Shown: positions 1 through 32,000, counted from the stretch's first letter. The stretch is DNA of 32,000 bases from Candidatus Regiella endosymbiont of Tuberolachnus salignus (GCF_964020115.1 NZ_OZ026542.1:1845436-1877435), one strand, 5' to 3'. The notes: generated by a model not told the origin, from the letters alone. Program-made: numbers and translations.

Positions 1-24
1 GTAACTTGAAAGACGAAGGGTATA
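1..24. repeat. ERIC-like MITE (family E), right end cut by window edge
   Basis: gtaacttgaaagacgaagggtata matches the right terminus of E1 (9904-9927) and of E3 (26469-26491). Confidence 0.7.
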
Positions 25-47
25 AAGAATATTTTCTAGGAGGTTAT

Positions 48-797
48 ATGTCTAAGGCTGCTTTATCATTTCTACCTGAAGAAGTTCCAGCGCCACTTGT
101 TTCATCGTGGGAAGATAGCGGTGATCCTTGGGGATTCAAAGATCATAATGCACGTTATTTGTATGCAAATGCTTCTTTCTTTGATTTATTGAATTTGCCA
201 TTAGAATCTAATATCGAAAAATTACCGGACACTAAGCAATCCGATAGCCATTTTTCTCAATTTTTATCTCAATTTACTGAGCAAGAACAACAAGCGAAAA
301 AAACCAAGAGAAAAGTATCTTCAATTGAAACCTATTGTTTTGGTCGAGAAGAAAAAATACAACCTTATCTTTTTGATAAGTTTCCATTGTTAAATGCTAA
401 AAAAGAATATATCGGTATTATCTTTCACGGGAAAAAAATGGATTTTTTCACTGGTGAACAATACCGTAACCACGAATCTCCGGTTAATTTCCTGGTTGAA
501 AAACCAGATGATTTTTTAACAGATCAGGAATTTGCAGTGCTTTTTTATCTTTGTGAAGACGCCAATGATGCGGTCATCGCTGAAGCATTATCACTCTCTG
601 AAGAAGAGGTCGCACAGCACCGAAAAACTATTTATCAAAAGGCGCAAGCCGAGTCTCTAGCAAGCTTGAATGATTTTTGTAAAAAAAGGGGATATCAGGG
701 TTACGTCCCACAAAAATTATTACGACCCAGTTCTGTCATAATTCCCTTTACTGAATGGGACTTAAATGATCTAGACTCGGGAAACGCTCAAAATTAA
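48..797 (+). CDS. LuxR-family solo transcriptional regulator with a non-AHL (PAS-like) N-terminal domain
   Basis: ORF 6..797 trimmed to ATG 48, which follows AGGAGG (41-46); codons upstream are read-through of a repeat end. The C-terminus has a LuxR/GerE-type HTH pattern (LTDQEFAVLFYL...IAEALSLSEEEVAQHRKTIYQKAQ). The N-terminus shares the PWG[FV]KD..[FY].YAN motif with the next gene. No autoinducer-binding domain is recognisable. Confidence 0.7.
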   Translation: MSKAALSFLPEEVPAPLVSSWEDSGDPWGFKDHNARYLYANASFFDLLNLPLESNIEKLPDTKQSDSHFSQFLSQFTEQEQQAKKTKRKVSSIETYCFGREEKIQPYLFDKFPLLNAKKEYIGIIFHGKKMDFFTGEQYRNHESPVNFLVEKPDDFLTDQEFAVLFYLCEDANDAVIAEALSLSEEEVAQHRKTIYQKAQAESLASLNDFCKKRGYQGYVPQKLLRPSSVIIPFTEWDLNDLDSGNAQN

Positions 798-890
798 TAC
801 AAAACATTACTCAGAAGCTCTTGCAATATCGACTTGTAGCAAGTACTTTTTACAAGTAGGCGATGGCAGACAAGATAGAGGAATAAGATC

Positions 891-1610
891 ATGGTAAATA
901 CAATAGACCACGAAAAAACCATTGATTCTCAATGTATAAAGACAGAATCTTTGGGTTCACTTATCTCTTTTATGGAAAATAATGAAGAGCCTTGGGGAGT
1001 GAAGGATTGTAGCTCTCGCTTTGTGTATGCAAATAAATCGACGCTGAGATTTAGTGGATTACCTAGCAATTTTAAGATGGAAAATAAATTAGACAGTGAA
1101 TGCTCGGGAGCTTCTTGGGCGGATTTCGAAGCTGACTTGCAAAAGCAAGATCGAGAGGTGGAGAAAAACAAAAAACGCGGTGCGATGATTCAAACTAACT
1201 TATGGGGAAGGGAGCACACCCTTTGCGAAAAATTTCCCCTCTTTAACAACGACAAGCAGTGTATTGGCACCGTATACCATGTAAGAAAGTTCAATTTTGT
1301 TTCTTTATATGAACTGTTTAACGACAGAATACCGCCAGTGCTAACTACAACGCCACCGGACAATAAATTTAAATTTACTGAAAAAGAACTTGAAATCATT
1401 TTCTGCTTGCTACATACCCATATGAGTGCGAAGGAAATAGGGAAAAAATTAAATCTTTCTCACCGCACAGTAGAAAATAAACTGCAAGTGCTATACAAGC
1501 AAAAAGCAGGCGTTAATTCATCAAATCAATTAAGAGAATTTTGCAGAGCAGAAGGTTTTGATCAGTATATCCCCGCCAGATTTTTTAAAGCTGGAGTGCA
1601 ATTCATTTAA
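891..1610 (+). CDS. LuxR-family solo transcriptional regulator, paralog of 48..797
   Basis: ATG 891 follows AGAGGA. The C-terminal HTH is FTEKELEIIFCLL...SAKEIGKKLNLSHRTVENKLQVLYKQKAGV. The N-terminus EEPWGVKDCSSRFVYANKSTL parallels GDPWGFKDHNARYLYANASFF in the upstream gene. Confidence 0.75.
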   Translation: MVNTIDHEKTIDSQCIKTESLGSLISFMENNEEPWGVKDCSSRFVYANKSTLRFSGLPSNFKMENKLDSECSGASWADFEADLQKQDREVEKNKKRGAMIQTNLWGREHTLCEKFPLFNNDKQCIGTVYHVRKFNFVSLYELFNDRIPPVLTTTPPDNKFKFTEKELEIIFCLLHTHMSAKEIGKKLNLSHRTVENKLQVLYKQKAGVNSSNQLREFCRAEGFDQYIPARFFKAGVQFI

Positions 1611-1736
1611 GTCGCTGCTCTAATTTTAGCGACAGAGCATACCGTACTGACCTTGTAAGGTTCCCCCTCTGTACTAAAAATCAGTCATCACCGATGATCC
1701 TCCGCTGAATTTAGTCGGGGAGAATGTCAAGTCTGA

Positions 1737-3476: not shown

Positions 3477-3582
3477 TATAACCACATCAGTCTAATTTGA
3501 TTTTATGTTGTCGTCGCCTGCCGTACTATTTGTACTGTCTGTGCTCCTCCGCCTTGAATCAAATTAGACTGATGCGGCTATA
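3477..3582. mobile_element. MITE family B copy B1
   Basis: About 26-bp terminal inverted repeats (tataaccacatcagtctaatttgatt / aatcaaattagactgatgcggctata) and the family core ccgtactatttgtactgtctg. Shares its terminal TA with A1. Confidence 0.85.
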
Positions 3583-3695
3583 TACCCTTCGCCTTTGATG
3601 TTGGCTGCGAGCCTTCGCCCTCATGGTATGTCGACGCTCATCGAGTCTCACGCCCTGCCTGGCAGCCGAAGGCAACTTCAAAGACAAAGGGTATA
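3581..3695. mobile_element. ERIC-like MITE family A copy A1
   Basis: Termini tatacccttcgcctttgatg ... cttcaaagacaaagggtata; the interior matches the other A copies. Confidence 0.85.
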
Positions 3696-3767
3696 ACATT
3701 GATGTATCAACAGTTCCACGAAATTTTGGATAAAAAAAAGCGGCAACTTAAAGAACTGTGAGTATAA

Positions 3768-6177: not shown

Positions 6178-6324
6178 CTAAAAGCCTGTTCCAAATCTTC
6201 TTGAGCGACGCTGAATTGAGAAAAAATGAGCGAAAAAGCGCAGTTTACATAAGGAAAATGAGCATTTTGAGCTCATATTTGACGAAGTATCAGCGAGCAC
6301 AAGAGATTCCAAACAGTCTCTAAG
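6178..6324. mobile_element. MITE family C copy C1 (147 bp)
   Basis: ctaaaagcctgttccaaatcttcttgagcgacg ... cagcgagcacaagagattccaaacagtctctaag. It is a long imperfect palindrome and aligns along its whole length with C2 and C3. Confidence 0.85.
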
Positions 6325-6440
6325 ACTGCCATGGCAGCCAGAAGTAAAGTTCAGCATTATAACGATATCGTAGCAATTAGCAGCTAAATACTGCTTTTAT
6401 CCTCGAAGATATTTTATCCCGCGCAATAAAGTTTGTTTTT

Positions 6441-6542
6441 TCAGCTACCTACTAATTTGATTCAAGGCGGAGGGGTACAGACAGTAAAAATAGTAAGGCA
6501 AGCGACGACAACACAGAACCAAGTGAAAATGATTTAGCTACA
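6441..6542. mobile_element. MITE family B copy B2 (degenerate termini)
   Basis: The family core ttgattcaaggcggaggggtacagacagtaaaaatagtaaggcaagcgacgacaacac is present; both termini are diverged. Confidence 0.6.
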
Positions 6543-6557
6543 ACACCAATGCAGCTC

Positions 6558-6733: not shown

Positions 6734-6806
6734 AAAATATACATTTTATCCTCCCTTAATATTCCCTAGATTTTTCTTCTCACATAGCTTTTTTGCACAT
6801 GCTTTC

Positions 6807-6838
6807 CTCGTTCAAGAAGATTTTGAACAGGCGCTAAG
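6807..6838. repeat. MITE family C terminal fragment (C10)
   Basis: ctcgttcaagaagattttgaacaggcgctaag matches the C terminus (gctcaagaagatttcgaacaggctctta). Its terminal cta is the feoA stop codon on the minus strand. Confidence 0.6.
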
Positions 6839-7199: not shown

Positions 7200-7294
7200 T
7201 ATGCTCTTCGCTTTTGAAGCTGCCGCGTGTTGGCTGCACGTTCATCGGTTTCCCCTCTGGCCGCCTAGCGGCAATTTGCAGGACTATGGGTATA
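7200..7294. mobile_element. ERIC-like MITE family A copy A2 (short, internally deleted)
   Basis: TA-tgctcttcgcttttgaagctgccgcg...ctagcggcaatttgcaggactatgggta-TA, inserted at the central TA of a perfect palindrome (arms 7183-7199 and 7295-7311). Confidence 0.75.
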
Positions 7295-7407: not shown

Positions 7408-7656
7408 ATGCATACTGTAATTTTTGGACGTTCTGGATGTCCCTATTGTGTCCGTGCAAAACAATTGGCAGAAACACTGGCGGCTAAACGCGACGATTTT
7501 ACTTTTCGCTACATAGACATTAATGAAGAAAATATTAGCAAAGCAGACCTAGAAAAAAGTGTTGGCCAACCGGTTAAAACTGTTCCACAAATTTTCATTG
7601 ATGAAAAACATATTGGGGGTTGTACCGATTTTGAAGCCTATATCCTTCGTCTTTGA
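7408..7656 (+). CDS. grxA: glutaredoxin 1 whose last 4 codons and stop come from a MITE
   Basis: MHTVIFGRSGCPYCVRAKQLAE...TVPQIFIDEKHIGGCTDFEAY matches E. coli GrxA (MQTVIFGRSGCPYCVRAKDLAE...). The tail ILRL-stop lies inside repeat A3. Confidence 0.9.
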   Translation: MHTVIFGRSGCPYCVRAKQLAETLAAKRDDFTFRYIDINEENISKADLEKSVGQPVKTVPQIFIDEKHIGGCTDFEAYILRL

Positions 7657-7753
7657 AGTTGCCTTCGACTGCCAAGGTGTGAGGCCGATGAGCGTGGACA
7701 TACCATGAGGGCTCGCAGCCAACAACGCGGCGGCTTCAAAGGCGAAGAGTATA
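7639..7753. mobile_element. ERIC-like MITE family A copy A3, inside the grxA 3' end
   Basis: TA-tatccttcgtctttgaagttgcc...ggcggcttcaaaggcgaagagta-TA. Confidence 0.85.
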
Positions 7754-9104: not shown

Positions 9105-9211
9105 TATAGCCGAATCAGTTTAATTTGATTCAAGGCGGAGGAGCACAGACAGTACAAATAGTACGGCAAGCGACGACAACACTTAAATCAAGTTAAAATG
9201 ATTTGGCTATA
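9105..9211. mobile_element. MITE family B copy B3
   Basis: tatagccgaatcagtttaatttgattcaaggcggagg...cagtacaaatagtacggcaagcgacgacaac...aaaatgatttggctata. It starts 1 nt after the aspC stop. Confidence 0.85.
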
Positions 9212-9230: not shown

Positions 9231-9812
9231 ATGAGAATAATCACGCTAATAGCGGTATTAGCTGTGGTTACCATTGGATTAGGTGGTGCTCTCTTTCTAG
9301 CGGGAGGGCGCCTCAATACGAGCAACAGTATGCCGTTGGGTTTGTATTGGATAACTGACAAGCCAATGACAAAAGGCGAATATGTTATTTTTTGCCCCCC
9401 ATTACAAGCCGCATTTAAAGAAGCAAAGCGGCGCGGTTATATTGGTTTCGGTTTATGCCCTGGTAACTATAGTTATATGATGAAAAAAATTGTCGCTCTC
9501 CAAGGTGACAACATTGCGATTACCGCTCAGGGTGTTAGCGTGAACGATACCTTGCTGCCTCATACCACCCCTTTGCCAACCGACAGAGCTGGGCAACCGT
9601 TACCACAAATCAGCATAGCATCTTATACCTTAAGTGAATCCGAATTATTACTCATGACGGAGCAAAGCCCTACTTCATTTGATTCACGTTATTTTGGACC
9701 TGTTAATAAAACCCAAGTTGTCTCTGTTATACGCCCCGTATTAACGTCTTCAACCTATTGGGGTCAATGGTTTTTAAAAAGATATAATCAATTAAAAAAT
9801 TATACCCAATGA
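9231..9812 (+). CDS. conjugative-transfer signal peptidase TraF-like (S26 family), orphan
   Basis: Collinear by eye with IncP (RP4) TraF: RLNTSNSMPLGLYW (catalytic Ser region), FCPP, RGYIGFGLCPGNYSYMMKKIVAL (Lys region), SFDSRYFGPV, VIRPVL. It has a tail of about 20 aa with no RP4 counterpart. The last 3 codons and the stop lie in repeat E1. Confidence 0.8.
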   Translation: MRIITLIAVLAVVTIGLGGALFLAGGRLNTSNSMPLGLYWITDKPMTKGEYVIFCPPLQAAFKEAKRRGYIGFGLCPGNYSYMMKKIVALQGDNIAITAQGVSVNDTLLPHTTPLPTDRAGQPLPQISIASYTLSESELLLMTEQSPTSFDSRYFGPVNKTQVVSVIRPVLTSSTYWGQWFLKRYNQLKNYTQ

Positions 9813-9927
9813 ATTTCGAGTTACGGCAAGGCGGCAATCAAGCGAATCCCAGGAGTATACAAGTAGTACATGACTGGGATGAGAGTGTGCAGCCAACGCC
9901 GCCGTAACTTGAAAGGCGAAGGGTATA
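9801..9927. mobile_element. ERIC-like MITE family E copy E1 (127 bp)
   Basis: The central core gaatcccaggagtatacaagtagtacatgactgggatgag resembles the ERIC core GTGAATCCCCAGGAGCTTACATAAGTAAGTGACTGGGGTGAGCG. Termini are tatacccaatgaatttcgag ... cttgaaaggcgaagggtata. Confidence 0.85.
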
Positions 9928-9941: not shown

Positions 9942-10781
9942 ATGAATAGTAGTCAACACGTTTATTCAAAACATCTTGGTCAAAAATCACAGTATATAGA
10001 TACATACAACGAAAAATTATTAGTAGCCATACCTCGGTCAGCAGGAAGAAAAGAAATAGGCTTAATCGATGAACAAATACCCTTCACTGGATTTGATTTG
10101 TGGACGGCATATGAACTTTCTTGGTTGAATAAAAAAGGAAAACCGCAGGTTGCTATGGCGGAGTTTACTGTACCCGCCACATCCCCAAATTTGATTGAAT
10201 CCAAATCACTCAAACTTTATTTAAATAGTCTAAACCAATCCCATCTCGATTCTTCAGAGGTTCACCAACATATCTCAAAAGACCTCTCTCACATCGCTGA
10301 AGCTGAAGTGAAAGTGACACTATTTGAGGGGATGAAAAATTACAGCAAAAAAATTGATGAGCCTGACTACATTAGCATTGATGAAAGCGATATAGAGGTC
10401 AATGACTATAAATTTAATGCTGATCATTTAAAAAATGCAGTGACAGAAAAATCACCTTTTGTTACTGAGCGCCTGACGTCAAATCTTTTAAAATCTAATT
10501 GTTTAGTCACCCTGCAACCTGACTGGGCCAGTGTTTTTATAAAATATGAAGGCAAAAAAATAGATAGAGAAAAGTTGCTTCGATATATTATCTCGTTCCG
10601 AAAACATAATGAATTTCATGAGCAATGTGTAGAAAGGATATTTTTAGATATAAAAAAATATTGTCATCCACAAAAATTAACGGTTTTTGCCAGATATACA
10701 CGTCGAGGAGGATTAGATATTAATCCCTTTAGAAGCGATTACGAATCGACATCAGCCATAGGGCGATTAGTCAGACAATAA
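9942..10781 (+). CDS. queF: NADPH-dependent 7-cyano-7-deazaguanine reductase (two-domain type)
   Basis: 279 aa are collinear with E. coli QueF: LIESKSLKLYLNS, LLKSNCLVTLQPDW, REKLLRYIISFRKHNEFHEQCVERIF, ARYTRRGGLDINP, RLVRQ-stop. Confidence 0.95.
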   Translation: MNSSQHVYSKHLGQKSQYIDTYNEKLLVAIPRSAGRKEIGLIDEQIPFTGFDLWTAYELSWLNKKGKPQVAMAEFTVPATSPNLIESKSLKLYLNSLNQSHLDSSEVHQHISKDLSHIAEAEVKVTLFEGMKNYSKKIDEPDYISIDESDIEVNDYKFNADHLKNAVTEKSPFVTERLTSNLLKSNCLVTLQPDWASVFIKYEGKKIDREKLLRYIISFRKHNEFHEQCVERIFLDIKKYCHPQKLTVFARYTRRGGLDINPFRSDYESTSAIGRLVRQ

Positions 10782-10830
10782 GTGACTGCTCCCCGCCCTA
10801 TTGGACAACAGTTTACAGCGAATTTTGCTA
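10782..10830. repeat. repeat family F copy F1
   Basis: gtgactgctccccgccc...cgaattttgcta. The 17-mer gtgactgctccccgccc recurs at 18596 and, reverse-complemented, at 27661-27677. Confidence 0.6.
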
Positions 10831-10974
10831 AGAGCCTATTCGAAATCTTCTTGAGCGACGCTCAATTGAGGAAAAAATGGGCGAAAAAGCGCAGTTTACA
10901 TACAGTAAATGAGCATTTTGAGCCCGTTTTTGACGAAGTATCAGCGAGCACAAGAGATTTCGAGCAGGTGCTAA
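10828..10974. mobile_element. MITE family C copy C2 (147 bp)
   Basis: ctaagagcctattcgaaatcttcttgagcgacgctcaattgagg...gtatcagcgagcacaagagatttcgagcaggtgctaa. Its terminal cta (10971-10973) is the stop codon of the truncated gppA. Confidence 0.9.
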
Positions 10975-18569: not shown

Positions 18570-18595
18570 CAAATACTCAATGTTGATGTGATGTT

Positions 18596-19652: not shown

Positions 19653-19760
19653 ATATCTCATAGTAAAGCCTAGCAGAGATCACATTAACCTCGTGTTATA
19701 ATCACTCTACAGTGTCGTTAACGCGGCTTCTTTACACCTTACACTTTGAGCAGAAAATAA

Positions 19761-21128: not shown

Positions 21129-21338
21129 CTAAGAGACTATACCCAATGAATTTCGAGTTACGGCAAGGCGGCAATCAATCGAATCCCAGGAGTGTACAAA
21201 TAGTACATGACGGGGATGAGAGCCAGCAGCCAACAACGCGGCGGCTTCAAAGGCGAGGGGTATACAAAAGTAAATGCGCATTTTGAGCGCGTTTTTGATG
21301 AAATATCAACGAGCACAAGAGATTTTGAATAGGCTCTA
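21129..21338. mobile_element. composite: MITE family C copy C7 with its left part replaced by E2
   Basis: ctaagagac[E2]caaaagtaaatgcgcattttgagcgcgtttttgatgaaatatcaacgagcacaagagattttgaataggctctaa. Confidence 0.7.
21138..21262. mobile_element. ERIC-like MITE family E copy E2
   Basis: tatacccaatgaatttcgagttacggcaaggcggcaatcaatcgaatcccaggagtgtacaaatagtacatgacggggatgag...cttcaaaggcgaggggtata. Confidence 0.85.
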
Positions 21339-21483
21339 AAATAAATTGAGTTCAAGAAAATACCGCTTTAGATTGCTTTTTGCACCGAAGTCAGTAGAAT
21401 TTTGAAACTTTTTACGTGTAGCAGGTTCCGTCTCCACGCGAGATCTGATTGTTTTGTTAATTTGTTAATTGAAAGAGGATGTT

Positions 21484-23168: not shown

Positions 23169-23282
23169 TCTAACCCTCAGTCTTTTAAGTTGCCGCTAGG
23201 CGGCCAAAGGTGAGGCCGATGATACATGATTCGGCGAGCACCCGCAGCCAACAACGCGGCGGCCTCAAGGGTGAAGAGGATA
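23169..23282. mobile_element. ERIC-like MITE family A copy A6 (diverged), between trmD and rplS
   Basis: tctaaccctcagtcttttaagttgccgctaggcggcc...cgcagccaacaacgcggcggcctcaagggtgaagaggata. Confidence 0.75.
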
Positions 23283-23721: not shown

Positions 23722-24020
23722 TTAAGAGCCTATTCAAAATCTTCTTAAGCGACACTCAATTGATAAAAAAACGGGCGAAAAAGCGCAGTTGCCTTTTGTT
23801 ACAAAAACAAGAAGGTAAATGAACATTTTGAGCCCGTTTTTGACAAAAGACTTTCTTGCAAAACCGTAGCGAGGGGTGTGAAGTCAAGGCACAGGGTACG
23901 CAGCAACCGCAGTGTACATATGCTAGTACATGAGGATTGCGAGCACCGCGCAACGCAGAATTCACACCACGCAGTAGGTTATGCAAGCAGTCTAAAGTAT
24001 CAGCGAGCATAAGAAATTTC
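23722..24020. mobile_element. MITE family C copy C8 carrying nested D1
   Basis: ttaagagcctattcaaaatcttcttaagcgacactcaattgat...gagcccgtttttgacaaa[D1]aaagtatcagcgagcataagaaatttc. The right terminus is truncated at the tusD stop. Confidence 0.75.
23848..23993. mobile_element. MITE family D copy D1, nested in C8
   Basis: Termini agactttcttgcaaaaccgtagcg ... cgcagtaggttatgcaagcagtct are inverted repeats. Flanked by AAA/AAA where intact C copies read gacGAAgtatcag. Confidence 0.7.
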
Positions 24021-24419
24021 TTAAAACTGGATAATGCGATCACAGGTGAATAACGCCTCGGCTAATGCTCCCAGCCCACCTAGCGTAAACCCGGGCTGTA
24101 GATTGATAGCGACAGTATGATCTTCAGTCTGATTCTTATCACAAACACCCCGCCGTTGAGCAGCTGAAATACACACATTTAGCTGCACTTTATTGTCTTT
24201 GGCTAACTGTGACCAGGCTCTGACCAAATCAAACTCATCATTGGCCGGGGCGGTCAATCGATTAGCATTTAAAACACCTTCACGATAGAAAAAAATATTG
24301 CTTAGCCGATGTCTTGCCTCCAACAGAGCCAAAGCAAATTGATAAGCGCTGCTTGCCTGCTGAGTGCCATAAGCTGAGCCGGTAACCAGCAAACAATAAC
24401 TTAAACTTAAAGGCTCCAT
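24021..24419 (-). CDS. tusD: sulfurtransferase TusD (DsrE family)
   Basis: From ATG 24419 (AGAGG upstream), [20 protein letters not shown]...[11 protein letters not shown]...DEFDLVRAW...[20 protein letters not shown]-stop is collinear with E. coli TusD. Confidence 0.85.
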
Positions 24420-24534
24420 ATTAAACCTCTGCAAAATCTATGCTCGACGCGAATATTTATTTATATATCCACAGTCCTTCAAGTCGCAGCGCGGCGGTCA
24501 GGGTGTTAGGGGCTGATGAGCATAGACAAACTAC

Positions 24535-24660
24535 TATACCCTTCGCCTTTGAAGCAGCCGCGTTGTTGGCTGCGAGCCCTCGCCCGAATCATGTAGTAGG
24601 TCTACACTCATCGGGTCTCACGCCCTGGCCGCCTAGCGGCAACTTCAAAGACAAAGGATA
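24535..24660. mobile_element. ERIC-like MITE family A copy A7b (nested)
   Basis: tatacccttcgcctttgaagcagccgcgttgttggctgcgag...ctagcggcaacttcaaagacaaaggata. Confidence 0.85.
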
Positions 24661-24661
24661 C

Positions 24662-24766
24662 ATAGCCGAATCAGTTTAATTTGATTCTATGTTGTCGTCG
24701 CTTGCCGTACTATTTGTACTGTCTGCGCTCCTCCGCCTTGAATCAAATTAAACTGATTCGGCTATA
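24662..24766. mobile_element. MITE family B copy B7 (nested)
   Basis: atagccgaatcagtttaatttgattc...ccgtactatttgtactgtctgcgctcctccgccttgaatcaaattaaactgattcggctata. Confidence 0.85.
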
Positions 24767-24841
24767 TGTGATTCAGACGAGCACCCGCAGCCAACAAAGC
24801 TGCAAACTTCCAAAGGCGAAGAGGATAGACTTGTTGCACGG

Positions 24842-24888
24842 CACAGCCCAATCATTTTATTGAATCAAATTAAAATGATTGGGCTATA
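24842..24888. mobile_element. MITE family B minimal derivative B8 (47 bp)
   Basis: cacagcccaatcattttattgaatcaaattaaaatgattgggctata; only the paired termini remain. Confidence 0.6.
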
Positions 24889-24910
24889 TCCGCGGTCTTT
24901 ACACAGTTAA

Positions 24911-25772: not shown

Positions 25773-25911
25773 TTAAGAGCCTATTCGAAATCCCTTGTGC
25801 TCGCTGATACTTTACGAAAATAGGGCTTAAATACTCGTTTACTTCGTGTAAACTGTGCTTTTGTTCATCTTTCCCTGAGCTCAGCTTAAAAAAATTTCGA
25901 ATAGACGCTAA
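25773..25911. mobile_element. MITE family C copy C9, in the divergent fkpA/slyX promoter region
   Basis: ttaagagcctattcgaaatcccttgtgctcgctgatactttacg...cttaaaaaaatttcgaatagacgctaa. Confidence 0.8.
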
Positions 25912-25987: not shown

Positions 25988-26200
25988 ATGAAACCTTTGT
26001 CATTTGAAGAGCGGCTAGAAAAACTGGAAAGCCAGATAGCTTTTCAGGATAAAAGCATTGAAGAATTGGAACTCATTGTGACGGAAAACCGCAATACAAT
26101 CGATAAATTACAAAAGCAACTGCATTTACTCGGTGAAAGATTGCCAGAAACATCAATTCTAGCAGCTGTTTCAGAAGAAGCGCCACCACCCCATTATTAG
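25988..26200 (+). CDS. slyX: protein SlyX
   Basis: From ATG 25988 (70 aa), ERLEKLESQIAFQDKSIEELE...APPPHY-stop matches E. coli SlyX ([21 protein letters not shown]...TPPPHY). It is divergent from fkpA, as in E. coli. Confidence 0.85.
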   Translation: MKPLSFEERLEKLESQIAFQDKSIEELELIVTENRNTIDKLQKQLHLLGERLPETSILAAVSEEAPPPHY

Positions 26201-26261
26201 ACTTCTGTATAACCTACTGCGTGGTGTGAATTTCTGCGTTACCGGTGCTCGCAATAGGCTC
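26199..26261. repeat. MITE family D half copy D2
   Basis: agacttctgtataacctactgcgtggtgtgaatttctgcgttaccggtgctcgcaat matches the reverse complement of the right half of D1. It overlaps the slyX stop codon. Confidence 0.65.
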
Positions 26262-26491
26262 TATACCCAATGAATTTCGAGTTACGGCAAGGCGGTATCC
26301 CAGGAGTGTACAGGTAGTACATGACAGGGATAAATGATCGCTGCCAACGCCGCTGTATAGCCGAATCAGTCTAATTTGATTCAAGGCGGAGGCGCACAAA
26401 CAGTACAAATAGTACAAATAGTACGGTAAGCGACGACAACGCAGAATCAAATTAGACTGATTCGGCTATAACTTGAAAGGCAAAGGGTATA
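26262..26491. mobile_element. ERIC-like MITE family E copy E3 (internally deleted) carrying nested B5
   Basis: tatacccaatgaatttcgagttacggcaaggcgg-tatcccaggagtgtacaggtagtacatgacaggg...gccaacgccgctg-TA[B5]TA-acttgaaaggcaaagggtata. Confidence 0.85.
26356..26470. mobile_element. MITE family B copy B5 nested in E3, flanked by duplicated TA
   Basis: TA-tagccgaatcagtctaatttgattcaagg...cagtacaaatagtacaaatagtacgg...gaatcaaattagactgattcggcta-TA. It contains a 9-bp tandem duplication (acaaatagt) absent from other copies. Confidence 0.9.
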
Positions 26492-26520
26492 ACACCGCTA
26501 CACAATATCCATTCATCATC

Positions 26521-27270: not shown

Positions 27271-27375
27271 TATAGCCGAATCAGTTTAATTTGATTCAAG
27301 GCGAGGAGCGTAGACAGTACAAATAGTACGGCAAGTGACGACAACACTTAAATCAAATTAAACTGATTCGGCTAT
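27271..27375. mobile_element. MITE family B copy B6
   Basis: tatagccgaatcagtttaatttgattcaaggcgaggagcgtagacagtacaaatagtacggcaagtgacgacaac...aaattaaactgattcggctat. Confidence 0.85.
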
Positions 27376-27620
27376 GGCACTGTTAACAAAGTTAAATTAT
27401 TGAATAAAAAAGAATTTATAAAAATATTTAGGACGCATAAAATAATGATGAGATAAAAATAATACTTTTTGTGATCGGCTTCATCATTGAGAGAATTCGC
27501 CGATCGCTGCCATAAAAAATCGATTCATCTGTTTTTTTTAAAGAGGAACCGTTTACTTTGAATGCATTTAAATTATAATAATTTCAATAAGTTAAATGAA
27601 TACACTTTGTTAACAGTGCC
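27376..27620. mobile_element. 245-bp AT-rich element with perfect 17-bp terminal inverted repeats (family G, single copy here)
   Basis: ggcactgttaacaaagt (27376-27392) is the exact reverse complement of actttgttaacagtgcc (27604-27620). The interior has no ORF longer than 10 codons. It sits between a B terminus and an A terminus. Confidence 0.65.
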
Positions 27621-27677
27621 ATATTTCCTTCGCCTTTGAAGTGGGAAGCCTCGTCCCATAGGGCGGGGAGCAGTCAC
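27621..27677. repeat. family A left terminus fused to family F copy F3
   Basis: atatttccttcgcctttgaagtgg (A terminus) followed by gaagcctcgtcccatagggcggggagcagtcac (reverse complement of gtgactgctccccgccctatggg). Confidence 0.6.
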
Positions 27678-28301
27678 TGAGTGAATTTATATAACGTAAA
27701 GTTATTTTTATCAGCCGGACGTTGTCCAACCCAAATCGGGATCCAGTGATCAGCTTGTATTTTTTCAGGATGGTGCACATTATCTTGAACTAGCAAAAAT
27801 AGGCAACGTTGGGCGTTTTTATTGAGTGTCACCCCATCACCTTCACCTGAGTGGCCTTCATAGATTTTTATCGCCACTTTACCTGTCACATAATGCAACA
27901 TACTCTGTTCGGACTCTCCAAGGCCACTGGTTGCAAGACATTCACTATTCTGAATAAAAGGAGCAAGTGTTAGGAAAGTGTCTTGATAGCTGCGTGCGGC
28001 GTTGATCCAAGGCATCAATAGTAAAAATGTGATAGACCAGGTTACAGCTAACCCCGAGGCCCATGACAGCAACATCGAATGGTTATCCGATTTTTTAATA
28101 ATAATTAACCATAAAATGATAATAATCATGGCTAATGTAAATAGATACCATTTCGTTTGTAAGGCAAAGGGCAAGGGTAATACATTATCAATGTCAGACC
28201 ACAATACTTGCAGTAACCGTGCCTCACCATCCATAACAAGATTAAACCAAGTCAATACTATTATTAACAGTGTGATACCGAAAAAAATGTTCATTACCTT
28301 A

Positions 28302-29163
28302 TATAGTGTCGTCATGAGATCTTGAGCCATAGAGCAAGGCATCGTATTTGTACAGCAGCGAGAAAAGAGGAGGTATTTTTTGCATAACGAGTAGCAATAC
28401 CTCGCCAGCGCTTTAGGTGCAGAAAAGCATTTTCCACGAGATGTCGATGCTTGTAGAGCGCTTTATCGTACTCACGTTGAATTTTACGATTCTTTTTAGG
28501 TGGTATTACGATTTGCATGCCGGCTTCTTCTGCTTTTTTAATGATGTTATCACTGTCATAGCCCTTGTCAGCCAACAGATATTCTGCTGCAATACCTTTG
28601 GTTAAATTCGTTGCTTGCTGACAATCTGCTGTGGTACCTGATGTAATAAAAATTCTGACCGGCATACCATGCGCATCCACGGCCAGATGTATCTTACTGT
28701 TGAGCCCCCTTTTGTGCGCTCCATATCCTGATTACCGCCTTTTGCGCCTGCTGCATGAGGGTGAACTTTGCTATGAGTGGCATCAATCATCAGCCATTCA
28801 AAATCTGGCTCCACAATCAGCGCTTCGAGCAGAGACTCCCATAGCCCCTTGTCACGCCAGCGGCAAAACCGGCGATGAGTATTTTTCCAACCGCCATAAT
28901 CAGGCGGTAAATCACGCCAGGGAGCGCCGGTTCTCAATATCCAGAAAACAGCATTAATAAACTGCCTGTTATCTCTGGCTATGCCACCCCAAGTGCCTTT
29001 TCTCCCCGGGAGATGAGCTTCCAATAGGCTCCAAACATGATCGGATATATCGTGGCGGCGATGGGCTAAATTCATTCCCGAATCATCTTTCATTATTGAA
29101 TCATCTCAACAGTTGTCGTTATTTGTTACATGATAATATATTTTTTATTACGTGACGACACTA
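28302..29163 (-). mobile_element. IS5-family insertion sequence (IS427/IS1031-like), about 862 bp
   Basis: Terminal inverted repeats tagtgtcgtcatg (28304-) and cgtgacgacacta (-29163). CTTA occurs on both sides (28298-28301 and 29164-29167), giving a candidate 4-bp target duplication. Confidence 0.8.
28312..29093 (-). CDS. IS5-family DDE transposase in two frames (candidate -1 frameshift)
   Basis: The N-terminus HRRHDISDHVWSLLEAHLPGRKGTWGGIARDNRQFINAVFWILRTGAPWRDLP is typical of the IS5/IS427 group. DDE contexts are LMIDATH, LLADKGYDSD and HLVENAFLHLKRWRGIATRY. The frames join as ...ERTK/RGLNSKIHLAVDAHGMPV at ACAAAAGGGGG (28705-28715). Confidence 0.8.
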
Positions 29164-29351: not shown

Positions 29352-29476
29352 TATACCCTTCGCCTTTGAAGCCGCCGCGTTGTTGGCTGCGAGTGTTCGC
29401 CTCATCAGGTAGTCTATCTACGCTCATCGGTCGGTCGCCCTGGCGGCCGAAGGCACCTTCAAGGACTGTGGGTATA
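29352..29476. mobile_element. ERIC-like MITE family A copy A8, in frame inside the glycosyltransferase-like gene
   Basis: TA-tacccttcgcctttgaagccgccgcgttgttggctgcgag...gaaggcaccttcaaggactgtgggta-TA. It adds exactly 41 codons between F and K of ...SFVF|KMIF.... Confidence 0.9.
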
Positions 29477-29934
29477 AACACGAAGCTATGATGTTTTATT
29501 TTGTACGATATCCAACGGATAAAAGCAAAAATGGCACCTATCACAAATAAAATGGATGTTGGCGCACCGTTAACCAGTATTGCGATTATCTTTTCGCTAT
29601 AGTTTTTGTTATAGACGCCGAGCGGGGCATCAGACAATCCTATAAAACGACCAATATTATTTAGCCAAAACCATTCATGAAAAAGTTCTGCTGAGTGGTG
29701 ATACAAGGCTAATGGCCACAATATGACGAAAGGTAAAACACCGATAAAAGCCGTGAGGTAGAATCTTAGCTTAGTGTGATTGCGAAAATCCTGAAAGAGA
29801 ATCAAGCAAAGTAATAATGTTAATCCAGCAATACCAGGGACGAACAATCCTTTTGATAAAAAAGCGATACCAATGCCAGCGCCGAATAAAAAACCACTGA
29901 TAACTTGCCTGGTTTTCACCTCTTTTGAAGCATT

Positions 29935-30062
29935 AGACTTCTTTCGAAACCGTAGTTCGTTATGCGAAGTCAAGGCACCCGGCGCACAGCAACCTTCGTT
30001 GCCTACAGTACATGAGGATTGCGCGCACCGGGCAACGCAGGATCCGGGTTTCGAAAGAGGTT
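29935..30062. mobile_element. MITE family D copy D3, in frame inside the glycosyltransferase-like gene
   Basis: agacttctttcgaaaccgtagttcg...cagtacatgaggattgcgcgcaccg...ccgggtttcgaaagaggttt. It is translated as ...SKPGSCVARCAQSSCTVGNEGCCAPGALTSHNELRFRK.... Boundaries are approximate. Confidence 0.7.
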
Positions 30063-30656
30063 TATTGCCAACTAGTGCTGCCAAAGCCAAAGTAGCCCCA
30101 GCAAGTTGAGCTATATCGGCAGTAAGTTTGTGAATGTGTTCGGTCAAACCAATGATGGCGACTAACAAGGTTATTGAATGCACACGATAAGAAATTGATG
30201 TGTGGGAAGGCGCTAGCGACAGTGATTGTCTGTCTATTTCGTCGAACAGACGCGATGCGATGAAACAAAATGCAGCTATTGTTACTGCCATAAAAAGTAC
30301 AATAGTCAGTCGCGATGATTCATGTGCGGGGATAAAAGGCAGTGCTTTAGCAAATATTGCGCCTATCCAAAATATGAGTGGAGATTTTTCTACAAAGGGA
30401 TCACCCGCGACATGCGGGATCAGCCATTGATTGTTAATGATGATGTTCCAAATAATGCCGAAGGAATAAGGCTCGTCTGCTTTCCAAGGGAATCGATCAA
30501 AAATACCGATTAAACCGTAAGCAAAAAATAAAACATAGATAAACCAAGTAGTAGGGATTTTTTTCAAAATCTGCCAGACTGGCAGAGAAGTCAATGAATA
30601 TTTTTTTATTGATTTTAACATAAGCTTGGTGTGTCCTACCCTCGTGGATCCTTGAA

Positions 30657-30780
30657 TATACCCTTCGTCTCTGAAGTTACCGCTAGGCAGCCAGAACGAC
30701 CGACCGATGAGCGTGGACATACCCCATGAGGGCGAGAGCTGGCAGCCAACAACGCGGCGACTCCAAAGGCGAAGGGTATA
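30657..30780. mobile_element. ERIC-like MITE family A copy A9, in the divergent promoter region of the glycosyltransferase-like gene and tilS
   Basis: tatacccttcgtctctgaagttaccgctaggcagcc...ggcagccaacaacgcggcgactccaaaggcgaagggtata. It lies 35 nt upstream of ATG 30621. Confidence 0.85.
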
Positions 30781-30863
30781 CTTCCTTGTGTTCATTAGAA
30801 GGATCTTCTAATAGACACTGAAAAAACTTCTAATAAGATATTTTTTATTTTATAACACTATCA

Positions 30864-32000
30864 ATGAATAAAAATGATGATCTTTTACTCCAGATTAACA
30901 AGCAGCTAGCGGGATATCGAGAGCTGCTAGTGGGTTTTAGTGGCGGACTGGATTCCAGTGTTTTGCTGCATCTACTGACTCGTCTACGCACTGGCCAACG
31001 GCCTGATCTGAGCATTCGAGCGATCCACATCCACCATGGAATCAACCCACAGGCAAACGATTGGGCAGAACATTGTCAATATCAATGTCAACAATGGCAA
31101 GTACCACTAGAAATTGTGTCGGTGCAACTGAATACACACAAAAATGGCATTGAAGCCGCTGCGCGCACAGCGCGTTATCACGCTTTTTCCACCCATCTCA
31201 CCGACAAAGAAGTGTTATTGACCGCTCAACATCAAGATGATCAATGTGAGACCTTTCTGCTGGCATTAAAACGGGGGAGTGGGCCAACGGGGTTGTCTGC
31301 CATGGCGTCAAAAATGGCTTTCGCGCAAAGTCAGTTACTCCGTCCTTTATTGAGCTGTTCCCGACAAAATTTAATGGACTATGCGCAACGGCATCAAATT
31401 CAGTGGGTAGAGGATGGGAGTAATCAAGATAGACGTTTTGATCGTAATTTTCTACGGCAAGAAATTATCCCTTTGCTCAATCAACGTTGGCCGCATTTTT
31501 CCCAAACGGTCACGCGCAGTGCTAGCCTTTGTGCAGAGCAAGAACAATTGCTTGATGAATTACTCACTGCCACATTAGATCAATGGCAGCATACTGATGG
31601 GTCTCTAGCGACTGACGGATTAATCACTATGTCAGAAGTGAAACGCAATGCGGTATTGCGGCGCTGGTTATCTCGCCACCATGTCAGCATGCCGTCTCGA
31701 GATCAGTTACAACGTTTATGGCATGAAGTTGTATTAGCGCGTATCGATGCCAATCCTTGTTTACAACTAGGGCAACATCAAGTACGGCGTTTTCGCCAGC
31801 GTCTCTATTTATCATCCTCGCAACAAATCAACATAACCCCCCAGTGTTTACACTGGTGTGTCAGTGAAGATCTATTACTTCCCGCTAACTTAGGGGTTCT
31901 GCGCCTGACTAATGCCGATGGACAACAAATTCGGGCAGCAAGGCCAGATGAAAGCGTGAAGATCCGTTTTGGCCTGCAAGGAAGGGTGAAAATTGTCGGG
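30864..32000 (+). CDS. tilS: tRNA(Ile)-lysidine synthase, 3' end beyond the window
   Basis: ATG 30864; MNKNDDLLLQINKQLAGYRELLVGFSGGLDSSVLLHLL (PP-loop SGGxDS), TAQHQDDQCETFLLALKRGSGP, FDRNFLR. Collinear with E. coli TilS and open to the window end (379 codons). Confidence 0.93.
   Translation, partial: MNKNDDLLLQINKQLAGYRELLVGFSGGLDSSVLLHLLTRLRTGQRPDLSIRAIHIHHGINPQANDWAEHCQYQCQQWQVPLEIVSVQLNTHKNGIEAAARTARYHAFSTHLTDKEVLLTAQHQDDQCETFLLALKRGSGPTGLSAMASKMAFAQSQLLRPLLSCSRQNLMDYAQRHQIQWVEDGSNQDRRFDRNFLRQEIIPLLNQRWPHFSQTVTRSASLCAEQEQLLDELLTATLDQWQHTDGSLATDGLITMSEVKRNAVLRRWLSRHHVSMPSRDQLQRLWHEVVLARIDANPCLQLGQHQVRRFRQRLYLSSSQQINITPQCLHWCVSEDLLLPANLGVLRLTNADGQQIRAARPDESVKIRFGLQGRVKIVG

Follow-up and report, generated by a model that had tools for sequence, protein, structure and literature searches.

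Gene-less transposon-like repeats of five probable lineages in a housekeeping region of Candidatus Regiella insecticola

Results and discussion

Gene content and repeat load

The window analysed here, a 32-kb stretch of DNA (32,000 nucleotides), carries the housekeeping genes panF, accBC, aroQ, queF, gppA, rhlB, trxA, rho, pdxH, ffh, rpsP, rimM, trmD, rplS and fkpA, together with the SRP RNA gene and an aspartate/aromatic aminotransferase gene. Because its RhlB is 99% identical to that of strain LSR1 (the runner-up match, from Yersinia, reaches 85%), the host can be assigned with confidence to Candidatus Regiella insecticola, an inherited symbiont of aphids. The syntenic LSR1 locus matches the window DNA at 91–100% identity, with 95–97% across most blocks.

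Repeated segments detected by self-BLASTN made up 3,851 bp (12.0%) of the window and the curated copies listed below 4,057 bp (12.7%), in agreement with the ~13%, or roughly 4 kb, estimated in an initial annotation of this DNA. Within these 32 kb the curated copies occupy 42% of the ~8.7 kb of non-genic DNA, and repeats account for just 4.2% of the syntenic LSR1 stretch. Profile searches combined with inspection gave 11 copies or fragments of type A plus two small end fragments, three copies of type E, eight of family B, 11–12 of C, three of D and three of F. The earlier counts for A, B and F were the same, those for C (10), D (4) and E (4) were close, and a family G reported from one copy was not found in the window. 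With G set aside and A and E merged, the seven families initially reported collapse to five lineages. An assembly artefact is ruled out, since orthologous copies are present in LSR1, whose genome was sequenced independently, and contigs assembled from short reads of the same strain (Logan) stop at the repeats.

Folded as single DNA strands, the copies of A, E, B and C pair from end to end (z = -5.4 to -7.7; none of 200 shuffles folded as well) and D pairs via its ends (z = -2.7 and -3.9). The description of most repeats as gene-less and MITE-like was borne out, these being hairpin-forming, TA-flanked sequences devoid of genes; F has no terminal inverted repeats and gave no significant fold.

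The ERIC lineage

Types A and E had been described as ERIC-like. Since each shows homology to the ERIC consensus of E. coli (z = 12–14 for A; score 100, z = 32–36 for E) and profile searches merged the two, they are to be regarded as a single family, ERIC, whose 123-bp unit (TACCC...GGGTA) duplicates TA on insertion.

3581..3695: ERIC-like A, 115 bp, meeting B at a common TA; missing in LSR1 (junction not a clean empty site)
3732..3766: ERIC-like A, terminal fragment
7200..7294: ERIC-like, internal deletion, 95 bp, at central TA of a 19-nt palindrome; LSR1 orthologue 100% identical
7639..7753: ERIC-like A, within a 338-bp stretch lacking in LSR1
9801..9927: ERIC E, closest to E. coli consensus; lacking in LSR1, where the site reads TTATATATAAGG
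13970..14095: ERIC-like A, rho leader; LSR1 retains half (deletion across a 12-nt near-repeat); fold z = -7.7
17753..17875: ERIC-like A, inserted at TA within a C copy
21138..21264: ERIC, left arm E-type, right arm A-type; 16 nt past ffh stop
23173..23282: ERIC-like A, 5' end truncated
24464..24534: older ERIC-like, left half, split by A + B at 24535-24767
24535..24662: ERIC-like A, nested
24765..24827: older split ERIC-like, right half
26262..26358: ERIC E, left segment of a copy into which B inserted at TA
26468..26495: ERIC E, right part beyond the B insertion
27622..27650: ERIC-like terminal fragment, fused to an F fragment
29352..29476: ERIC-like A within a broken membrane-protein gene; a 544-codon ORF reads through in frame
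30657..30780: ERIC-like A, 5' end of the same membrane-protein gene

The ends of this lineage appear to agree with those of "CCC-type" IS630 elements from the sister genus Fukatsuia. A 1,097-bp Fukatsuia IS630 ends in TATACCCGTGATCAATGAAG and TATACCCAAGTGAAA, which gave z = 4.8 and 5.3 against A and E in end-anchored alignments, and on contig L091 an ERIC end (TACCCGTCATCAATGAA) adjoins an IS630 with its own end (TACCCGTGATCAATGAAG). The ERIC-type MITEPlu5 has likewise been tied to IS630 (Zamora-Lagos et al. 2018, PMC6267812).

Family B, a Correia homologue

The termini of B had not been recognised from any named family. Over its full length, however, B is 70% identical to a 106-bp Correia copy (local score 67, z = 26.5), and its interior matches two N. 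gonorrhoeae chromosomes at 40 or more sites each. The whole of B, 107 bp long, is a same-sized homologue of the 106–107-bp form of Neisseria Correia/NEMIS, with termini that diverge past TATAG.

3478..3583, minus strand: B (Correia-like), 106 bp; LSR1 orthologue 97% identical
6437..6543: B, degenerate; common to LSR1
9105..9211, plus strand: B, 2 nt past aminotransferase stop; lacking in LSR1 (site ...AGTTAATTAAT...); fold z = -6.7
19581..19654: B, 5'-truncated
24660..24767, minus strand: B, inside the ERIC-like copy that is split
24845..24889: B mini-copy, two terminal repeats only
26356..26471, plus strand: B, inserted at TA within an E copy; internal 9-nt duplication
27271..27377, plus strand: B

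This second lineage consists of a 105-bp element plus TA, whose ends (TATAGC...TAATTTGATT) seem to resemble a second IS630 subtype in Fukatsuia: against three ends of Fukatsuia IS630 elements of this subtype (HTH_Tnp_IS630 + DDE_3) they gave z = 3.5–5.1.

Families C and D, with IS5-like ends

Family C is a 150–165-bp element that forms a full-length hairpin, and the ends of D resemble those of an IS5-family insertion sequence.

6179..6325: C; LSR1 orthologue 95% identical
6790..6835: C terminal fragment
10829..10976: C at truncated gppA 3' end; 100% identical in LSR1; fold z = -5.5
15584..15747: C, long form with 16-nt extra loop (12 nt instead in LSR1)
17719..17752: C, left end of the copy that the ERIC-like element at 17753 interrupts
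17881..17969: C, interior of the copy split at 17753
18491..18571: C, short deletion derivative, 81 bp
18794..18849: C mini-copy, 56 bp, ends only
21266..21341: C, right half, abutting an ERIC copy
23723..23847: C, left part, interrupted by D
23996..24030: C, right part beyond the D insertion
25774..25911: C
23848..23995: D, 148 bp, nested in C
26197..26259: D fragment
29933..30066: D within the broken membrane-protein gene

The 20-nt end of C, TAAGAGCCTGTTCCAAATCT, lies inverted at both ends of an 886-bp DUF4096 + DDE_Tnp_1 element, itself TA-flanked, on metagenome contig L202, so that the ends of the C lineage are those of a ~0.9-kb IS5-family element. This full-length IS comes from a metagenome organism, not from Regiella. 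Further copies of C occur in a Fukatsuia plasmid and in a chromosome apparently of Fukatsuia or a close relative, and Fukatsuia also holds a D-like mini-element. The D end, TAGACTTCTTTCGAAACC, gave z = 5.1 against the end of ISRin1, TAGACCTCTTCGGAAACT, and the D lineage may accordingly share its ends with this most common Regiella IS, a TA-flanked IS5-family element encoding HTH_Tnp_4 + DDE_Tnp_1/4 that is present in 50 entire copies in LSR1 (Degnan et al. 2010).

Family F and the resident insertion sequence

F cannot be classed as an inverted-repeat MITE, as it has neither inverted ends nor a significant fold; it corresponds instead to an IS200/IS605 end.

10781..10828, plus strand: F, 48-nt IS200/IS605-type left-end/right-end fusion, its first base being the final one of the queF stop codon
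18596..18643, plus strand: F, second short-form copy
27646..27678, minus strand: F, 33-nt right-end fragment of a tnpB-proximal variant (…GGCTTCCCAC…)
28304..29163, minus strand: IS5-family IS, 860 bp, DUF4096 + DDE_Tnp_1 in two frames, 11-nt inverted ends TAGTGTCGTCA

The F 17-mer GTGACTGCTCCCCGCCC was found in 59 IMG/VR contigs, and the related IS200/IS605 element also occurs in many prophages. On contig L106 this 17-mer forms the end of an element, 40 nt beyond tnpB (OrfB_IS605 + Cas12f-like TNB), with a Y1 transposase gene beside tnpB. From these matches F can be identified as a ~50-nt end-fusion of an IS200/IS605 (TnpA/TnpB) element; as a fifth lineage, such a single-hairpin fusion of left and right ends would be moved by a Y1 transposase (TnpA).

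The 860-bp IS at 28304–29163 splits the membrane-protein gene and is the sole transposase-bearing element in the window. As initially annotated, it is of the IS5 family, and none of the small families of the window shares its ends.

Insertion sites and age

Comparison with LSR1 provided a clean filled and empty site for ERIC: LSR1 carries a copy that reads ATGACA-TA-[TACCC...GGGTA]-TA-GAGACA where the window has ATGACA-TA-GAGAAA, which demonstrates ERIC mobility with TA duplication. Conversely, the window has B at 9105 and E at 9801 where LSR1 has neither, and these two differences are precise to 4 nt or better (four extra bases, GCTG, stand at the B site). Five nested or abutting insertions at TA were also seen: type A lies within C at 17753, B within E at 26357, A together with B within an older A copy at 24535-24767, and D within C at 23848, and A abuts B at 3581. 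The clean sites with TA duplication and these five insertions show that the repeats have been mobile. We consider it highly probable that five lineages of non-autonomous transposable elements colonised the intergenic DNA and the pseudogenes of Regiella; none of the elements encodes a protein, and each would retain only the DNA ends recognised by a transposase produced elsewhere.

Paralogous copies are 67–93% identical and orthologous copies in the two strains 88–100%; most insertions are therefore older than the strain split. No very recent burst is evident, because no paralogous pair exceeds 93% identity. B and E come out of these sequence comparisons as the youngest, and some elements may still be active today.

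It is possible, though we think it the less probable course of events, that the repeats are dead relics, dispersed already in an ancestor shared by Regiella and Fukatsuia and no longer mobilised, strain differences being deletions. The modest identity of paralogues would suit such a history, as would the many truncated, internally deleted or degenerate copies, the sharing of C and a D-like mini-element with Fukatsuia, and several differences from LSR1 that are indeed deletions: those at A 3581, A 7639, C 15586 and A 13970 are untidy deletions or replacements, not clean insertion sites. Moreover, no intact Regiella IS630 was found, there being no Regiella-named protein among the 120 best-scoring relatives of the CCC-type IS630 transposase from Fukatsuia and only partial copies of the one single-ORF ~1.1-kb IS of LSR1, ISRins5, in the list of Degnan et al. 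(2010); for these reasons ERIC and B may be immobile in present-day Regiella. At least one textbook insertion, with TA duplicated and the empty site of the other strain intact, nevertheless speaks against relics throughout, as do the precision of the differences at B 9105 and E 9801 and the abundance of ISRin1, the candidate helper of D. The matter is one of timing, and is compatible with the elements being MITEs.

Candidate helper transposases

No helper transposase of the kinds proposed above is encoded in the 32-kb window, as the initial annotation had noted in stating that the mobilising transposase was not to be seen there. Returning to five mobile lineages, the named transposase families would act on them in trans. 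End similarities for A, B and D (15–19 matches over 18–27 nt, z = 3.5–5.3) are suggestive of such a link, and the probable helpers are likely to span three superfamilies. The IS630/Tc1-like helper suggested earlier fits A/E and B, but not C, with IS5-family ends, or D, with ISRin1-like ends.

A single IS630/Tc1-like transposase mobilising every TA-flanked family is accordingly improbable. A, E, B and C all start and end with TA, IS630 is the most abundant transposable-element family in Fukatsuia (PMC7145644) and two of its subtypes there have ends like A/E and B; yet TA flanks fail to tell IS630 from these IS5-type elements, the family ends are unlike each other past TA, the ends of C and D match TA-flanked elements with DUF4096 + DDE_Tnp_1 and HTH_Tnp_4 + DDE_Tnp_1/4, respectively, and F has no inverted ends at all.

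We judge it equally unlikely that, instead of being selfish mobile DNA, the repeats are kept by host selection for a function, for instance as terminators, RNA-stability hairpins or protein-binding sites: many copies begin ~2–50 nt from a stop codon (aminotransferase, ffh, trmD, rplS, queF), all large families form long hairpins, and RNase E/RNase III processing and promoter effects are published for ERIC and Correia (review PMC10969869), but copies insert in each other and in pseudogenes, occur in one strain but not the other at sites that are conserved in other respects, are non-uniform in orientation and position and have ends matching those of insertion sequences, so that function after insertion, while possible, would leave their spread unexplained.

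As transposons without genes, the repeats would fill about one-eighth of the 32 kb, illustrating the extent of mobile-DNA load possible in a young symbiont genome. By analogy with the ERIC and Correia papers, gene-end hairpins are likely to be co-transcribed and to alter mRNA processing, genes are likely to be disrupted, and dispersed repeats are likely to break assemblies and could promote rearrangement.

Comparison with known systems

The elements are of a known kind; their families, density and Correia link appear to be undescribed for Regiella. Like ERIC/IRU (MITEEc1, MITEYpe1 and MITEPlu5 in ISfinder), A/E are imperfect palindromes over their whole length (115–128 bp) with termini TATACCC...GGGTATA and TA duplication, lie mostly immediately 3' of genes and in some cases are read through in frame within an ORF, as described by Delihas (PMC2759123). 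They differ in density, which is far higher: the 32 kb hold 14–16 copies or fragments, whereas 80 other Enterobacterales loci have no more than two per 21 kb and Photorhabdus, with 552 complete copies, has ~1 ERIC per 10 kb (PMC6267812). For type A, a diverged subfamily, BLAST found no match in 5,426 E. coli genomes.

A/E and B share with RUP (Streptococcus pneumoniae) and MITEPlu2/MITEPlu5 (Photorhabdus) a size of ~100–125 bp, TA as the target and terminal repeats similar to the ends of an IS630-family element. That element is resident in the hosts of RUP and the MITEPlu type, whereas for A/E and B the matching IS630 copies were found in Fukatsuia and not in the Regiella sequence searched; RUP has no sequence relationship to A/E or B. 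In common with Correia/NEMIS/CREE, B measures 105–107 bp with flanking TA, has termini TATAG...CTATA and a TA target, and has ~50 nt of nearly identical interior (CAAGGCGG...CAGACAGTACAAATAGTACGGCAAG...CAACA). In contrast, ~20 nt of each terminal repeat past TATAG are unlike (CCGAATCAGTTTAATTTGATT in B, TGGATTAACAAAAATCAGGA in Correia), no 155-bp Correia form was seen among the B copies, and the host of B is a gammaproteobacterial insect symbiont, whereas reviews list Correia for Neisseria only (PMC2229807, PMC3184786, PMC10969869).

C and D share their terminal 18–20 nt and TA flanks with ~0.9-kb IS5-family ISs of two overlapping frames (ISRin1 and the 886-bp element) and deletion derivatives of these; the C and D interiors have nothing in common with the transposase genes. 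Because a 188-bp element with C-type ends from another metagenome organism (contig L184) has an unrelated interior, it is the ends, not the interiors, that define the C-type group.

F has the right-end terminus (...GGGCGGGGAGCAGTCAC) and subterminal hairpin of IS200/IS605 elements with TnpA (Y1) and TnpB and of PATE-type miniatures, and its short form has the first ~20 nt of the left end. Described miniature IS200/IS605 derivatives are generally much larger than F (~48–52 nt, single hairpin). The short form of F follows a TTAG-like motif, as expected of IS200/IS605 elements, which insert 3' of a short target and do not duplicate it.

Repeat load and gene setting

The miniature transposable elements (MITEs) of the window are real and densely packed, and they are of a kind that is already well known. 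In order to obtain a copy list, every repeat-bearing spacer was read, profile models were applied and boundaries were then fixed. The curated copies span 4,057 bp, corresponding to 12.7% of the window (G+C content 41.7%) and 42% of its DNA outside genes. The initial annotation, which had counted by hand seven families amounting to about 4 kb or 13%, was thus borne out on the load, and its per-family copy counts were essentially right; its family G, however, could not be identified in the window. Self-BLASTN returned repeated segments of 3,851 bp (12.0% of the window), and an exact-seed repeat finder returned 21 direct-repeat families.

The repeats lie among the housekeeping genes panF, accC, accB, aroQ, the SRP RNA gene, an aspartate/aromatic aminotransferase gene, queF, a truncated gppA, rhlB, trxA, rho, pdxH, ffh, rpsP, rimM, trmD, rplS and fkpA. 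The SRP RNA alone scored above threshold in an Rfam scan of the window. The further genes and the single transposase-bearing element are as follows:

1-1610, two neighbouring PAS_4-LuxR "solo" regulator genes
9231-9812, TraF-like (conjugal-transfer) signal peptidase gene, alone between the aminotransferase gene and queF
10971-11876, gppA, with 301 of about 496 codons left
16503-17669, class C (AmpC-type) beta-lactamase gene, here in an aphid endosymbiont
27674-30795, membrane-protein gene with a weak ArnT-like match, split by the IS of the next line
28304-29163, IS5-family IS of 860 bp with ends TAGTGTCGTCA

The TraF-like gene is also present in Candidatus Regiella insecticola LSR1, a second strain used for comparison, and is probably the remnant of an integrated plasmid. 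Copies of families C and F (10781-10976) lie directly at the break in gppA; LSR1 has the identical truncation with C and F copies that are 100% identical, so the loss of gppA predates the split of the strains. The split membrane-protein gene holds two ERIC-like copies and one D copy, and a 544-codon open reading frame runs unbroken across all three. Such in-frame read-through is what Delihas described for ERIC (PMC2759123).

Families A, E, B, C and D all have the features of MITEs, being small and non-coding, with terminal inverted repeats, several copies and, in A, E and B, a duplicated target. Their folds were compared with those of shuffled controls, the standing against which is given as z throughout: A, E, B and C reached z = -5.4 to -7.7, and D z = -2.7 and -3.9. 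The TA flanks of C fit a duplication, but no clean empty site was found for this family. Each of the five shares ends with an autonomous IS: A and E with IS630 elements of the CCC type, B with a second IS630 type, C with an IS5-family element on metagenome contig L202 (20 nt identical) and D with ISRin1, the commonest IS of Regiella. None of these partners is in the window, where, as had been claimed from the sequence, the IS5-family element with its unrelated ends is the sole autonomous element and the mobilising transposase is missing. Helpers from three transposase superfamilies would be implied within 32 kb; both the helper assignments and any present-day activity are inferred.

Families A and E and the ERIC lineage

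Profile models of A and E each recovered all copies of the other. Aligned locally to the RU-1/ERIC consensus of E. coli, as given by Delihas (PMC2759123), E scored 100 (z = 32-36) and A 43 (z = 12-14). Judged by these alignments, A and E are ERIC, with E as the canonical form and A as a diverged subfamily; the initial annotation had rightly taken both as ERIC-like, and its division into two families did not hold, since profile searches merge them. Full copies measure 123-128 bp and fold end to end as DNA (z = -7.7 for A and -5.4 for E). One ERIC copy found in LSR1 only, between aroQ and accB, reads ATGACA-TA-TACCC...GGGTA-TA-GAGACA opposite ATGACA-TA-GAGAAA in the window; from this filled and empty pair the element measures 123 bp, duplicates a TA and has the ERIC termini TATAC...GTATA. 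The positions of A and E copies just past stop codons or in leaders would be compatible with a transcribed intergenic location. Apart from its density, the ERIC part of the repeat set is ordinary.

Plasmid p5D-1 of Fukatsuia symbiotica, from the sister genus of Regiella, carries two IS630 elements of 1,097 bp that start with TATACCCGTGATCAATGAAG and have the reverse-complemented end TATACCCAAGTGAAA. Ends of this "CCC type" were tied by Zamora-Lagos et al. to the ERIC-like MITEPlu5 of Photorhabdus (PMC6267812). In end-anchored alignments with them A and E gave z = 4.8 and 5.3, respectively, and no shuffle equalled these scores. On a further contig (L091) a related IS630 is directly followed by an ERIC copy, the end of which (TACCCGTCATCAATGAA) is nearly the same as that of the IS itself (TACCCGTGATCAATGAAG). 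No Regiella-named IS630 transposase turned up among the 120 best relatives of the Fukatsuia enzyme, and the closest of those without a species name came from environmental metagenomes.

The central TA of a perfect 19-nt palindrome (GAAGCTTTTACGATGTTTA / TAAACATCGTAAAAGCTTC; 7181-7313) is the exact position of a deleted ERIC-like copy (7200-7294); the site is located downstream of the SRP RNA gene, at a distance of about 450 nt. Either an earlier hairpin element or a terminator may have served here as target.

Family B and the Correia elements

Family B elements are 105-107 bp long with 26-nt terminal repeats; the five full copies measure 106-116 bp and have TA on both flanks, in agreement with the length and target of Correia elements, and the ~155-bp form of the Correia type was not seen among the B copies. 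In a BLAST search of a plasmid collection, B had 40 or more matches in either of two Neisseria gonorrhoeae records of 2.17 Mb (NZ_CP119140.1 and NZ_CP119142.1); both are chromosomes filed as plasmids, and the match came to light solely through this filing. The gonococcal sequence matched is a 106-bp Correia element, TATAGTGGATTAACAAAAATCAGGACAAGGCGGCGAAGCCGCAGACAGTACAAATAGTACGGCAAGGCGAGGCAACACCGTACCGGTTTAAATTTAATCCACTATA. Aligned over its full length with one such 106-bp copy (L289), B was identical in 78 of 112 columns (global z = 9.7), and local alignment gave a score of 67 (z = 26.5). The two have in common a nearly identical interior, the same length, a TATAG start, a CTATA end and the TA target, whereas about 20 nt of terminal repeat between TATAG and the interior differ. 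The 24-26-nt Correia terminal repeat (TATAGTGGATTAA...) is absent from B, which has TATAGCCGAATCAGTTTAATTTGATTC and agrees with it only in TATAG and scattered positions. Because of this different terminal repeat, we regard B as a relative of Correia without strict membership. Three reviews give Correia for Neisseria only (PMC2229807, PMC3184786 and PMC10969869).

The ends of B resemble those of a second subtype of Fukatsuia IS630 (HTH_Tnp_IS630 and DDE_3 domains), TATAGCGTAACGTATTAATTTTGATTAC and variants, against which TATAGCCGAATCAGTTTAATTTGATTC of B gave z = 3.5-5.1. A relative of Correia outside Neisseria with ends like those of an identifiable IS630 subtype offers a lead on the enzyme that moves such elements. 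The B end had no match in a metagenome scan, and a viral scan gave two contigs with a single match each.

An alignment of ten sequences showed CAAGGCGG to be invariant and at the same offset in Correia, B, Regiella E and E. coli ERIC, along with the centre TAC-A-TAGTA (GTACAAATAGTAC in Correia, B and ERIC) and a CAAC block. A superfamily of ERIC and Correia was considered on the strength of these shared blocks, but E. coli ERIC and Correia aligned pairwise with an insignificant z = 1.8, and a common origin of the two is kept as a lead only. A wider proposal strikes us as rather improbable when taken as a whole: that B and the Fukatsuia IS630 (TATAGC...TAATTTTGATTAC; HTH_Tnp_IS630 and DDE_3) would be a Correia-type MITE and its autonomous relative, that Correia, B and perhaps ERIC would form one IS630-dependent superfamily in beta- and gammaproteobacteria, and that about 10% of the Regiella genome would be MITEs. 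We know of no transposase identified for Correia, and this proposal, if true, would supply a concrete candidate enzyme.

A derivation of B, C and D from ERIC could not be demonstrated: a central likeness of only about 13 nt was found in B and D (z ~5), and C reached z = 3.2 against the E. coli consensus. Assignment of C and B to YPAL/RU-2 or RU-3 was dismissed for lack of any similarity, and alignments of RU-2 and RU-3 with all families were no better than shuffles.

Families C and D and IS5-type ends

Family C elements are 150-165 bp long and palindromic over their whole length, with deletion derivatives of 56 and 81 bp. Scanning metagenomes with the C end returned mostly single chance matches. 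On one 1,038-bp metagenome contig (L202), the 20-nt C end TAAGAGCCTGTTCCAAATCT occurs twice, in inverted orientation and 884 bp apart. Between the two ends lie overlapping frames, two in number, that encode DUF4096 and DDE_Tnp_1 domains, and the unit is thus a complete IS5-family element. A viral scan for C gave nine contigs with a single match each. One C copy of 78% identity is present on the Fukatsuia plasmid, where it adjoins PAS and LuxR genes similar to those at the start of the window and an acyl-homoserine-lactone synthase gene (L084, 20462-23603). Another is on a contig resembling the chromosome of Fukatsuia or a close relative, together with a 60-bp D-like mini-element.

Further occurrences of C-type ends were recorded. 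On a Fukatsuia-like chromosome contig (L096, 8259-8581) the C-like terminus TAGGGCTTGTTCTAAATCT starts a fragment with a 134-codon open reading frame that has no family match; this fragment, which is broken by an IS630 insertion, may belong to an autonomous element that is resident there and has C-type ends. Metagenome contig L184 (2569-2756) holds a 188-bp element with C-type ends and an unrelated interior, and two others (L196 and L181) gave weak full-length profile matches to C. From these three contigs it appears that C-type ends serve MITEs in other organisms.

Family D elements, of about 135-148 bp, pair chiefly via their ends. The D end TAGACTTCTTTCGAAACC aligned with the ISRin1 end TAGACCTCTTCGGAAACT at z = 5.1; ISRin1 belongs to the IS5 family, and for LSR1 it is listed with 50 entire copies (Degnan et al. 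2010, Table S4). Because both IS5-type elements, that of L202 and ISRin1, are flanked by TA, such flanks alone do not indicate IS630. The centre of D (AGTACATGAGGATTGCGAGCACCGCGCAACGC; copies at 23848-23995 and 29933-30066) weakly resembles that of ERIC (local z ~5) and the D ends resemble ISRin1. D may be a chimera. A Salmonella Infantis contig showed a 51-nt match to the D centre.

Family F and IS200/IS605 ends

Family F is of a different kind: it is without inverted ends and folds no better than shuffles (z = +0.9 and -0.3). A concatenated query against phage genomes found F in a Providencia phage and a Klebsiella phage with 83-85% identity over about 53 nt. The 17-mer at its start, GTGACTGCTCCCCGCCC, is exact in 59 IMG/VR contigs and occurs in Providencia and Klebsiella phages as well (L097 3001-3054, L098 3001-3052 and L099-L157 in all); there it either closes a TnpA/TnpB element or stands alone in a unit of about 50 nt, and one contig (L145) has a perfectly palindromic version, GTGACTGCTCCCCGCCCTGAAGGGCGGGGAGCAGTCAC. 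In many IMG/VR contigs the F sequence passes directly into a gene at its 3' end; for L106 this gene is tnpB (OrfB_IS605 and a Cas12f-like TNB domain), beside a Y1 transposase gene. On L106, as on about 20 further prophage contigs, the end that lies 40 nt past tnpB equals the first 33-40 nt of F. Since F thus ends a tnpB-bearing element on L106, we assign it to the right end of an IS200/IS605 element, as its terminus.

At 27646-27678 only 33 nt of the tnpB-proximal form are present, as a fragment, while the 48-nt copies (10781 and 18596) and the phage copies represent a shorter form in which a left-end start (as on L106; GCAAA..CGCCG.AAACCCTCGCCC) is fused to the right-end terminus via one shared hairpin. 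Of about 12 copies from Regiella and phages that were inspected by eye, most show (C/T)TTAG preceding the short form at its left boundary. Rfam returned nothing for F and the C/F region, even at E <= 1, and the ideas that F might be an RNA gene, a CRISPR repeat or an attachment site were dropped in view of its identity with IS605 ends. An end-fusion of about 50 nt that the window shares with Providencia and Klebsiella phages indicates how small a remnant of the TnpB type can persist, and F is of possible interest for TnpB guide RNA research.

Movement and age of the copies

The window repeats have moved by transposition, for which the best case is the LSR1-only ERIC copy. Two copies, B 9105 and E 9801 (numbers give the window start), are present in the window and missing from LSR1. 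The LSR1 site opposite E 9801-9927 (L083, ~13250) has four extra bases (TATA), reading TTATATATAAGG instead of the expected TTATAAGG, which could be a Tc1/mariner-style excision footprint or slippage of a TA repeat. Other strain differences, at A 3581, A 7639, C 15586 and half of A 13970, are untidy deletions or replacements. Nesting at TA was found for A in C (17753), for B in E (26357; GCTG-TA-[TAGCC...GGCTA]-TA-ACTTG) and for A and B in an older A (24535-24767); A 3581 and a B copy have one TA in common, and a D lies inside C at 23848. Paralogous copies are 67-93% identical and orthologous copies between the strains 88-100%. As paralogues diverge more than orthologues, most insertions are older than the strain split. 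B and E are the youngest families, in agreement with their strain-specific copies.

Regiella strains and assemblies

RhlB of the window is 99% identical to that of LSR1 in the protein database, with Yersinia next at 85%; in a scan of one genome per species, Yersinia was the best match at 85%, and identity to Photorhabdus was 79%. Photorhabdus, which the GC content, the PAS-LuxR solos and the ERIC load had suggested as source, was rejected on these RhlB identities. Window 3078-16438 aligned with the syntenic LSR1 locus (L083) at 91-100% DNA identity, and at 95-97% in most blocks. The alignment stops near 16440, beyond which LSR1 carries a 324-codon gene followed by recC, so the neighbourhood is rearranged between the strains. 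Insertion differences between strains otherwise so similar over most of the locus provide markers to type and date Regiella lineages.

Exact copies of window proteins were found only on contigs of 1.5-5.6 kb from public short reads, broken off at repeats; that with ffh is just 1,539 bp. Same-strain Logan contigs (L001, L002 and L092-L094; ERR13868582, ERR13868850 and ERR10664261) have ends inside or beside MITE copies. Protein look-ups for more Regiella sequence gave no record for RplS (from its TTG start), the OrfA of the window IS or the query P0242, and those with Ffh, RpsP and P0241 gave contigs of 1-2 kb only. Dispersed repeats fragment assemblies, and the MITE copies explain the fragmentation of short-read Regiella assemblies, in which same-strain contigs stop at repeats. 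Gene callers are also misled here, producing odd open reading frames such as the 544-codon frame across three MITEs.

Distribution and comparison with known repeat loads

The published Regiella genome papers considered here count transposase-bearing IS only. IS and "repetitive sequences" are described for LSR1 in its genome paper (PMC2955975) and for TUt in its announcement (PMC7530917), neither of which mentions MITE or ERIC, nor are MITEs mentioned in the main text of a 2026 comparative Regiella study, which used a general transposable-element pipeline. Four points seem new: an insect symbiont carries a family related to Correia (B), for which there is a candidate partner in IS630; families C and D are linked to IS5; F is an IS605 end-fusion of ~50 nt; and helpers of three superfamilies are implied by the repeats of so short a stretch. 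Non-coding hitch-hikers may equal IS in mobile load, which bears on genome rearrangement and decay early in symbiosis.

Among 80 Enterobacterales rhlB loci (1.6 Mb), ERIC alone was found and never in more than two copies per 21 kb; no locus had A, B, C, D or F (A by BLASTN only, as the profile merges A with E). The same five families had no match at E <= 0.001 in 5,426 complete E. coli genomes, a weak test for the 48-nt F; this speaks against similarity to REP/BIME and other repeats of E. coli. In LSR1, the stretch that corresponds to the left part of the window consists of 4.2% repeats, so the window strain carries more of them than LSR1, and the density of 12.7% may be a local high. Palindromic elements make up about 3% of the genome of Rickettsia conorii, the highest MITE load known, and a Regiella genome with about 10% MITEs would exceed it several-fold. 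In a 2024 census of strictly conserved MITEs, the maximum was 1.23% of a genome (PMC11602168).
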